Origin: a virus
Lineage: Duplodnaviria; Heunggongvirae; Uroviricota; Caudoviricetes
IMG/VR virus record: IMGVR_UViG_3300046522_000750
Length of the DNA: 64,000 nucleotides
Direction: 5' to 3' (one strand)
Shown here piece by piece: positions 23,001-23,524 of this stretch (the first letter of the stretch is position 1; every line of letters starts with the position of its first letter). A model generated the notes under the pieces. That model ran no database searches, was not told the DNA's origin, and was given only the letters and a program-made list of their open reading frames with translations. A program made the translations under genes and the position numbers.

Positions 23001-23029
23001 CTGAAAGGATTGTATGTTTTTCGTACAAT
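23001..23029 (+). promoter_or_regulatory. Candidate CRISPR leader promoter CTGAAA-17-TACAAT
   Basis: Sigma70 spacing, ~45 bp upstream of repeat 1; GAAAGC-TGAA-GCTTTC hairpin at 23045-23060. Confidence 0.45.
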
Positions 23030-23075
23030 TTGCAGGGGAGCCAGGAAAGCTGAAGCTTTCAGGTGATTGAGGGCG

Positions 23076-23524
23076 GGTTTTGGCCAGATAGGCCGTTTAA
23101 AGATTCATAGCGAGTGATTCATCCAGGCTCCAACAGTTTCTGGCCGGGCAGGCCGTTTAAAGAATAGAGCTCGTAATTGCTCGAAAACGCGACCAGTTTC
23201 TGGCCAGATAAGCCGTTTAAAGACACACTTTACCGCAATTAGCTTCGGTTTCTAGGTTTCTGGCCAGATAGGCCGTTTAAAGATCCGTGTGGGATGCGTT
23301 AGTTGATTCGCCAGAGTTTCAGGCCAGATAGGCCGTTCAAAGATCCTTGTCTGCGCCCAGTCAAGCCTGCCCTTTGCTTCCGGCCAGATATGCCGTTTAA
23401 AGAATAGTATCTGGCGCCCGACAGGCAGAACCAGTAACACTGGCCTTATAGGCTGCTAAAAGTACATATAACACGCGAAAAGCTCCATCTTCACAATTTT
23501 CCGGCCATATAGGCCGATCAAAGG
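23076..23524 (+). CRISPR. Orphan type I-F-like CRISPR array: 8 degenerate 28 bp repeats (consensus GTTTCTGGCCAGATAGGCCGTTTAAAGA) and 7 spacers
   Basis: Repeats at 23076, 23136, 23196, 23256, 23316, 23376, 23436 (exact 60 bp period) and 23497; six unique 32 bp spacers and one of 33 bp; 5+5 stem+5 loop+5 stem+8 handle architecture; 17/28 identity to the canonical I-F repeat GTTCACTGCCGTATAGGCAGCTAAGAAA. Confidence 0.9.

Follow-up and report, generated by a model that had tools for sequence, protein, structure and literature searches.

Introduction

Among the CRISPR systems that plasmids direct against other plasmids, those of type IV are the best documented. The type IV-A systems of Pseudomonas oleovorans (IV-A1) and Klebsiella (IV-A3) are plasmid-borne, have no adaptation module and carry anti-plasmid spacers, which in IV-A3 are acquired in trans from a type I system of the host (PMC11656645, PMC11519345). 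'Incomplete' CRISPR loci have also been described in the pMPPla107/pBASL58 family of megaplasmids, and a remote array was noted at ~720 kb of pBASL58; leaders, PAM and targets were outside the scope of that study (Smith et al. 2019, Genome Biol Evol, PMC6482414). Plasmid-borne arrays without cas genes and the incomplete loci of this megaplasmid family are therefore already known. What is new here is the use of a common leader and repeat to connect an array with its effector, the CC PAM of the family, the heterogeneous-repeat trait, and the plasmid-directed spacers, including a doubly targeted addiction module.

The array studied lies on the + strand of a DNA stretch of 64,000 nucleotides, the whole of which was analysed and is hereafter called the window. 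Its lineage is most likely a divergent type I-F specific to a family of ~1-Mb Pseudomonas-type megaplasmids, and a cognate cas operon was found outside the window, at loci L078 and L095. Canonical type I-F1 is similar in the 28/32-nt format, the 5-bp stem and 5-nt loop at positions 6-20, the G20 at the cleavage side, the 8-nt handle and the 5'-CC PAM. Canonical I-F1 repeats with a GGCC stem, such as those of Solilutibacter pythonis (GTTCACGGCCGCGTAGGCCGCTTAGAAA, beside csy1-csy4) and Enterovibrio (GTTCACGGCCACATAGGCCGCTTAGAAA), are identical to the window repeat at 20-21 of the 28 positions. However, where canonical I-F1 has GTTCAC and a CTTAGAAA handle, GTTTCT and YTYAAAGA are found here; in addition, repeats vary within a single array, cas1 is absent from the operon, and the Cas2 domain is missing from the Cas3.

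The Rep and the gene content place pMPPla107 and pBASL58 in the same plasmid family, and they have a cas3/csy3/csy4 locus without cas1. The remote array of pBASL58, with 10 repeats and a 60-bp period, is far from any cas locus, like that of the window. In contrast to the window array, its repeats are near-uniform and near-canonical (CTTCACCGCCGCGCAGGCGGCTTAGAAA), and the plasmid also has a complete I-F system.

Type IV-A shares with the present locus the plasmid-borne location, the lack of adaptation genes and the anti-plasmid spacers, and this identity was the first to be suspected. It was rejected on the CC PAM and on effector genes of the Csy3/Csy4/Cas3f kind: there is no csf or DinG, Cas7 and Cas6 are of the Csy3/Csy4 kind, Cas3 is present, and the PAM is CC and not AAG/AAN. 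Type I-F3 (Tn7-like CAST) is also an I-F derivative without cas1/cas2, and some of the lineages described here lack cas3 as well. Among solved structures, the Cas6f is closest to the Cas6 chain in 7U5D (E 9e-5), which we take to be an I-F3 CAST complex. Nevertheless, I-F3 arrays are very short, whereas those of the present family reach ~38 repeats (L078); cas3 is present in L078 and L095, and no tniQ/tnsABC families were flagged among the operon neighbours.

Structure of the array and its leader

The window array is composed of eight 28-nt repeats at 23076-23524 with a period of 60 bp (the final step is 61); between them are seven unique spacers, 32 nt long except for the final one of 33 nt. 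This is the arrangement given in the original prediction, and that of a CRISPR array in general (regular repeats of 23-47 nt, unique spacers of similar length). The features are listed below; L038 is a sister contig with an array at the same place.

22935..23075, + strand: leader; 117 of 142 columns (82%) identical to the cas-adjacent leader of L095, 78% to that of L078
23001..23029, + strand: candidate sigma-70 promoter CTGAAA-17-TACAAT inside the leader; 9/12 consensus match
23076..23103, + strand: repeat 1, GGTTTTGGCCAGATAGGCCGTTTAAAGA; 41.3 bits
23104..23135, + strand: spacer 1, 32 nt; unique, no match at E<=10 in PLSDB or phage records
23136..23163, + strand: repeat 2, loop GGGCA; 37.7 bits
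23164..23195, + strand: spacer 2, 32 nt; weak umuC match (26/32, E=2)
23196..23223, + strand: repeat 3, without the loop-closing pair; 42.8 bits
23224..23255, + strand: spacer 3, 32 nt; unique, no match in PLSDB or phage records
23256..23283, + strand: repeat 4, equal to the consensus; 46.8 bits
23284..23315, + strand: spacer 4, 32 nt; match in xre, the antitoxin gene of a relE/xre operon
23316..23343, + strand: repeat 5, identical to repeat 6 of L038
23344..23375, + strand: spacer 5, 32 nt; identical in L038
23376..23403, + strand: repeat 6, without the loop-closing pair; covariance-model match
23404..23435, + strand: spacer 6, 32 nt; unique, no database match, differs from the L038 spacer at the same place
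23436..23463, + strand: repeat 7, degenerate (AACACTGGCCTTATAGGCTGCTAAAAGT); 26 bits, hairpin kept through a G.U pair
23464..23496, + strand: spacer 7, 33 nt; matches relE/parE, the toxin gene of the operon in which spacer 4 has its target
23497..23524, + strand: repeat 8, terminal and degenerate (…GGCCGATCAAAGG); 35.6 bits

The repeat consensus is GTTTCTGGCCAGATAGGCCGTTTAAAGA, and all eight copies differ from one another. A covariance model made from the repeats matched the eight copies (26-47 bits, E 7e-11 to 2e-4), with zero further matches across the 64-kb window. Tandem Repeats Finder and Rfam gave no report of the array in the window, as expected, because the repeat is spaced and uncurated. 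Regarding other collections, the exact repeat 22-mer is absent from the species genomes and from IMG/VR, a two-unit stem pattern retrieved only canonical I-F and I-F3-like arrays from the species genomes, and a handle-plus-spacer pattern gave a single chance match, inside a gene, in the metagenome collection.

A hairpin of positions 6-10 and 16-20 with a 5-nt loop folds in every window repeat, and G20 is invariant across the 16 repeats that were aligned (16/16), which is the repeat and spacer format of type I-F (28 + 32 nt, stem-loop at 6-20 ending in G20). The 5-bp stem and 5-nt loop that had been predicted are thus present in 8/8 copies, but the stem is imperfect: the pair at its foot is a U.G wobble in most of them, the loop-closing pair is absent from R3 and R6, whose stems are weakened, and R5 has an A opposite the G at the stem base. 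The 8-nt handle is TTTAAAGA, which bears out the original description of an off-consensus handle; canonical type I-F has CU(U/A)AGAAA, in a repeat starting with GUUCAC, and the window repeats start with GTTTCT. Across the window, L038 and L078 repeats (49 distinct sequences), pairing is kept in 92% of cells versus 4-58% in slid registers, four cells are compensatory, and the pair types exceed every one of 500 shuffles; as the alignment was model-fitted, these pairing counts are somewhat biased.

The leader stands at one end of the array and the degenerate repeats at the other, with R7 and R8, at the far end, the most degenerate. The leader core ACCGCTCTTTAACAACCTCAGCCCTGAA...GGTGATTGAGGG is kept in 5/5 aligned leaders. 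The promoter proposed upstream of the array falls within this leader, in a stretch conserved in L038, L078 and L095, although it matches the consensus in part only, at 9 of 12 positions. The tail of repeat 8, GATCAAAG, resembles trailer repeat 35 of L078. The locus is a genuine leader-bearing CRISPR array of type I-F format, without cas genes within the window.

The replicon

The array is preceded, at a distance of 8.6 kb, by a gene for a Rep3-type initiator. The closest PLSDB relatives of this initiator belong to the FeN3W plasmid, pPL1 and pMPPla107 (46-53% identity), Pseudomonas megaplasmids of 0.9-1.2 Mb, and the predicted plasmid location is therefore supported. Contig L001 (69.5 kb, Logan run SRR26076530) is the same DNA, 100% identical to the window over 12,130 bp. 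In a megablast search, the 5 kb around the array had no close relative in PLSDB or phage records. As had been read from the visible sequence, there is no cas gene: none of the 69 ORFs of at least 120 aa in the 64-kb window matched a Cas family (PADLOC, NCBIfam). The 329-aa protein encoded upstream of the array and the small downstream ORFs belong to no Cas-like family or look-alike.

In the FeN3W megaplasmid (CP136011.1, 153827-154834; L061), a type IV cas7 (csf2, E 2e-91) is found instead of Csy3/Csy4. Members of the megaplasmid family have therefore recruited different adaptation-poor CRISPR types.

A cas operon with the same leader and repeat

The cas locus L078 is found at 237.9-259.0 kb of a contig of 1,110,529 bp. 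The rep region of this contig (L040, 627.8-648.9 kb), ~390 kb apart, is an 80% relative of the window. Directly upstream of the L078 cas3, on the opposite strand, there is an array of ~38 heterogeneous repeats which, as reverse complement, read GTTCCCGGCCAGATAGGCCGTTCAAAGA or GCTCCCGGCCAGCTAGGCCGCTCAAAGA and belong to the window repeat family; a model made from the window and L038 repeats only gives them scores of up to 43.9 bits. The remark in the original prediction that no two window repeats are identical is correct, but it does not denote decay of this copy alone, as the cas-adjacent array of L078 is equally heterogeneous.

A second locus, L095, is on a 24-kb contig from run SRR26076530, the run of L001. 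It has intact cas3, cas8, cas5, cas7f and cas6f genes, whose proteins are 71-91% identical to those of L078 (90.5% for Csy3). The leader is upstream of the operon and is followed by only ~3 spacers before a degenerate trailer. A cognate Cas6f and Cas7f, with the same leader and repeat, is therefore present in the same run as the window DNA and outside the window; this is co-occurrence in a run that may be a metagenome, and does not amount to linkage. Among the roles that had been envisaged for the array, the supply of crRNAs to a divergent I-F effector far away on the same replicon is now the favoured one, through the matched leader and repeat of L095, read as same-run evidence and not as linkage, and of L078, ~390 kb from rep in a 1.11-Mb relative.

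Regarding the type of the operon, the Csy3 and Csy4 of L078 pass the curated NCBIfam cut-offs. The L078 Cas3, a homologue of that of L095, aligns to positions 117-900 only of the I-F Cas3f model, and the Cas2 domain is therefore missing. No cas1 was found within 6.3-10 kb on either side of csy3 in L077, L078 and L095. The locus thus has neither the cas1 nor the Cas2-Cas3 fusion of canonical I-F1. Cas8 and Cas5 are unrecognised or faintly recognised by family models. It had been anticipated that a cognate canonical operon elsewhere would make the window array an ordinary satellite; by that reasoning the array is a satellite, but the operon is not canonical.

The Csy3 of the megaplasmids forms a clade of its own, with 45-100% identity to the pPL1 Csy3 used as query and at most 35% to canonical Csy3; the members checked pairwise are at least 43% identical. 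Genes of the Csy3/Csy4 type are encoded in pMPPla107, pPL1 and pBASL58, in loci without cas1 that comprise cas3, Csy3 and Csy4, a faint Csy2 and a large subunit that was not recognised. The covariance model of the repeat family found no such array in pMPPla107, pBASL58, pPL1 or the FeN3W plasmid. The 1.1-kb gap that immediately precedes the pPL1 cas3 contains a single repeat-like unit, GGCCAGCTAGGCCGTTTTAAA (NZ_CP143488.1, 961207-961228; L063:23208-23225), which may be the remnant of a lost cas-adjacent array.

Some lineages have no cas3 (L087:6434-7399 and L089:6211-7301), and their cas-adjacent array comprises 1-2 units and a degenerate trailer, which is a homologue of the L078 trailer. One of them comes from sample ERZ2271677, which is also the source of L039, the 87% relative of the window. 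This nearest sampled lineage has lost cas3 and nearly all of the cas-adjacent array and has no satellite array, indicating that the system is dispensable and able to decay.

In L078 (11816-16198), L095 (11817-16206), L087 and L089, cas6f is always followed by a 156-aa CYTH-domain gene, a 223-aa gene and a gene for a 1006-aa SF1 helicase (AAA_11/AAA_12) that weakly resembles the anti-phage helicases PLuB, ProA and Hhe. The trio is kept even in the lineages without cas3, and may be an accessory module of the system.

Spacer targets and PAM

Two of the window spacers point to the same addiction module. Spacer 4 matches the xre gene of the P. fluorescens plasmid pPHE20 at 29 of 32 positions, the three mismatches all being at synonymous third codon positions, and a P. 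luteola plasmid allele, flanked by 5'-CC, at 27/32. Spacer 7 matches the relE/parE gene of pPHE20 at 29 of 33 positions, with a CC 5' flank, and the P. luteola plasmid at 28/33. Its target adjoins that of spacer 4 on the other strand, and both genes of one relE/xre toxin-antitoxin (TA) operon are thus hit. Spacer 2 has a weak match (26/32, E=2) to the umuC of IncF-type Klebsiella/Escherichia plasmids, where the 5' flank is GC and not CC, and the match of spacer 5 to an Aeromonas plasmid helicase gene (25/32) is at chance level. In PLSDB and phage records no window spacer has a perfect match, and spacers 1, 3 and 6 have no match at all; self-targets longer than 11 nt are absent from the window.

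The cas-adjacent array of L078 has a similar orientation towards plasmids. Of the 24 PLSDB records matched by its spacers, 23 are Pseudomonas plasmids, and the genes hit are mobV, rep/entry-exclusion, hsdR and relE. These plasmid matches are exactly as long as the spacer, whereas the phage matches are at chance level.

The spacer search and PAM check proposed with the original prediction brought out a CC. On the spacer-sense strand, CC is directly 5' of the protospacer for all five well-matched L078 spacers and for spacer 2 of L038, so that the 5'-CC PAM of type I-F holds for 6/6 of the best-matched L078 and L038 spacers. Spacers 4 and 7 of the window each have this flank in one of the two known alleles of the target. 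A CC on that side establishes the + strand as the crRNA strand, in agreement with the position of the leader and the degenerate far end. A TAGC PAM, deduced from three flanks, was dropped because alternative target alleles and six further spacers show CC.

Sister plasmids and turnover of the array

Sister contigs were gathered through homologues of the 329-aa gene upstream of the array. In one of them, L038, 11.3 kb align with the window at 97.5% identity, and an array of at least 11 repeats is at the same place. Only spacers 4 (with one SNP) and 5 (identical) are common to both arrays; the four leader-proximal spacers of L038 and those on its trailer side differ from the spacers of the window. 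Since only two spacers are common, the spacer content has turned over after the window and L038 split, and the proposal that spacer acquisition had stopped is not supported. The parts that are shared differ by one SNP in 64 nt of spacer and one in 56 nt of repeat. However, the leader-proximal repeats R1-R3 differ mutually more than the 2.5% divergence predicts, and this may fit recombinational import or array exchange better than recent canonical acquisition.

In L039 and L040, whose upstream-gene proteins are 87% and 80% identical to that of the window (82% and 78% in DNA), there is no array between that gene and the downstream Panacea-domain gene, and the array is also absent from the locus in more distant homologues of the 329-aa gene. 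The satellite array is therefore a gain of the window/L038 lineage. Its origin can be traced in part: window spacer 7 and L078 spacer 33 are identical at 28 of 32 positions and both are near the trailer, suggesting that the satellite descends from a cas-adjacent array.

Within L078, spacers 4 and 27 (3423-3390 and 2047-2014 region) are identical at 31/32 positions, and both have repeats with a GAAAGG loop and a TTAAAAGA handle; this duplicated repeat-spacer unit indicates that arrays of the family also change by internal recombination. Spacer 4 of L038 (11462-11493) resembles the 3' half of a tRNA gene (T-arm GGTTCGA(T/A)TC) and has 26/32 matches to sites on large Paracoccus replicons and to the start of one P. 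aeruginosa plasmid record.

Proposed role and alternatives

In our assessment, the array is probably a satellite source of crRNAs for an adaptation-less I-F variant, carried by a Pseudomonas-type megaplasmid and used against competing plasmids. We infer that array and operon are on one molecule, and the same applies to transcription, processing, interference and adaptation in trans. The leader and array beside the plasmid's own cas3-cas8-cas5-cas7f-cas6f operon would have been copied into the replication-proximal region. From the promoter of the leader, a pre-crRNA would be transcribed from the + strand, and the divergent Cas6f would cut it after G20, at the base of the 5-bp hairpin, giving crRNAs of ~60 nt with the 8-nt 5' handle YTYAAAGA. 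Loaded into the plasmid's Cascade-like complex, these crRNAs would recognise 5'-CC-flanked protospacers on other Pseudomonas plasmids, the putative targets being the relE/xre addiction operon and, more weakly, umuC. Cas3 would then degrade the target, and rival plasmids would be excluded or removed. As the operon has no cas1/cas2, spacers would have to come from I-F adaptation in trans, by the host or another element, or from recombination between the two arrays; a rare renewal of spacers would explain why the repeats drift apart.

The alternative that survives best, although we judge it unlikely, is that of a decaying relic, a duplicated array which is neither processed nor used and awaits deletion. 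It would account for eight window repeats that all differ, two of them (R3 and R6) short of one stem pair, for the lack of any perfect protospacer match, for the loss of cas3 and arrays in related lineages, and for the roughly neutral rate at which the spacers and repeats shared by the window and L038 have diverged. Yet the L078 array is just as heterogeneous and adjoins intact genes, the hairpin is preserved throughout the family well above the slid controls, the leader is conserved, and the same run contains the five cas genes in intact form. Moreover, since the L095 array has ~3 spacers, a satellite with seven would be the larger source of crRNAs.

It is improbable that the array works with a canonical type I-F system encoded on the host chromosome instead of a plasmid-borne effector; this reading is the borrowed host Cascade of the original prediction. 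The 28+32 geometry and the CC PAM would suit such a system, 20-21 of 28 repeat positions are common to GGCC-stem canonical repeats that adjoin csy1-4 in Solilutibacter, and adaptation genes are needed from elsewhere in any case. Against it, GTTTCT replaces GTTCAC and TTTAAAGA replaces CTTAGAAA at positions fixed in canonical I-F arrays, the derived repeat and leader accompany the divergent operon in L078 and L095, and identity between the Csy3 clade of the megaplasmids and canonical Csy3 is no more than 35%. Nothing was found in favour of borrowing.

Very improbable is a role as RNA anti-CRISPR, in which repeat-like RNAs would titrate the host Cas6f/Csy and protect the plasmid. Repeat mimics are known to be carried by mobile elements (review PMC11656645), and the window repeats are I-F-like and off-consensus. 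Such mimics are solitary repeats with no functional spacers and no cognate cas genes, and a decoy needs none of what is found here: seven full-length spacers, homologues of CC-flanked plasmid protospacers, a leader shared with cas loci and an operon in the same run. Nothing speaks for this option of the original prediction either. Finally, a reading as iterons or protein-binding sites of the replication region, suggested by the Rep3 initiator gene ~8.6 kb away, has practically no chance, given the 60-bp period, the unique 32-nt stretches between the repeats, the spacer matches to foreign plasmids, the 87% and 80% relatives that retain the rep region without the array, and the homology to cas-adjacent arrays, which already refutes it.

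If the array is a satellite crRNA source as preferred above, a type I-F derivative appears to fill the role of type IV on some of the largest known Pseudomonas plasmids, in a system without adaptation genes of its own and with a second array beside the replication region. Confirmation would make it a natural case of array upkeep in adaptation-less effectors, a measure of the repeat variation tolerated by Cas6f/Cascade, and a test of whether targeting TA modules is a general way to strike many rival plasmids. For annotation, the case illustrates that leader homology can connect an orphan-looking degenerate array with its effector.

A wider and tentative proposal, which we hold to be possible but doubtful, concerns the family as a whole. 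The ~1-Mb Pseudomonas-type megaplasmids may have domesticated an I-F effector without cas1/cas2, with two dispersed arrays of heterogeneous repeats that would be aimed at rivals, with a preference for the widely distributed relE/xre addiction modules, and would be refilled in trans or by exchange; the cas3-less sisters might then use Cascade without cleavage, perhaps together with the 1006-aa SF1 helicase. If this were true, the cas3-less lineages would represent a type I-F route to type IV-like, nuclease-free silencing of plasmids.

Genes around the array

A gene past the array (23615-24118), which starts 90 bp after the last repeat, has a product with a SocA/Panacea domain (Pfam E 7e-15). 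This gene stands apart from the array, since the array-less L039 and L040 also have it at the locus. At the position of the window array, the 80% relative has a gene for a 259-aa protein of no known family (L040:11071-11850). On the - strand, 2.4 kb upstream of the window array (19724-20641), there is a gene for a 305-aa radical-SAM protein similar to the Cfr/RlmN rRNA methyltransferases (NCBIfam E 2e-17).
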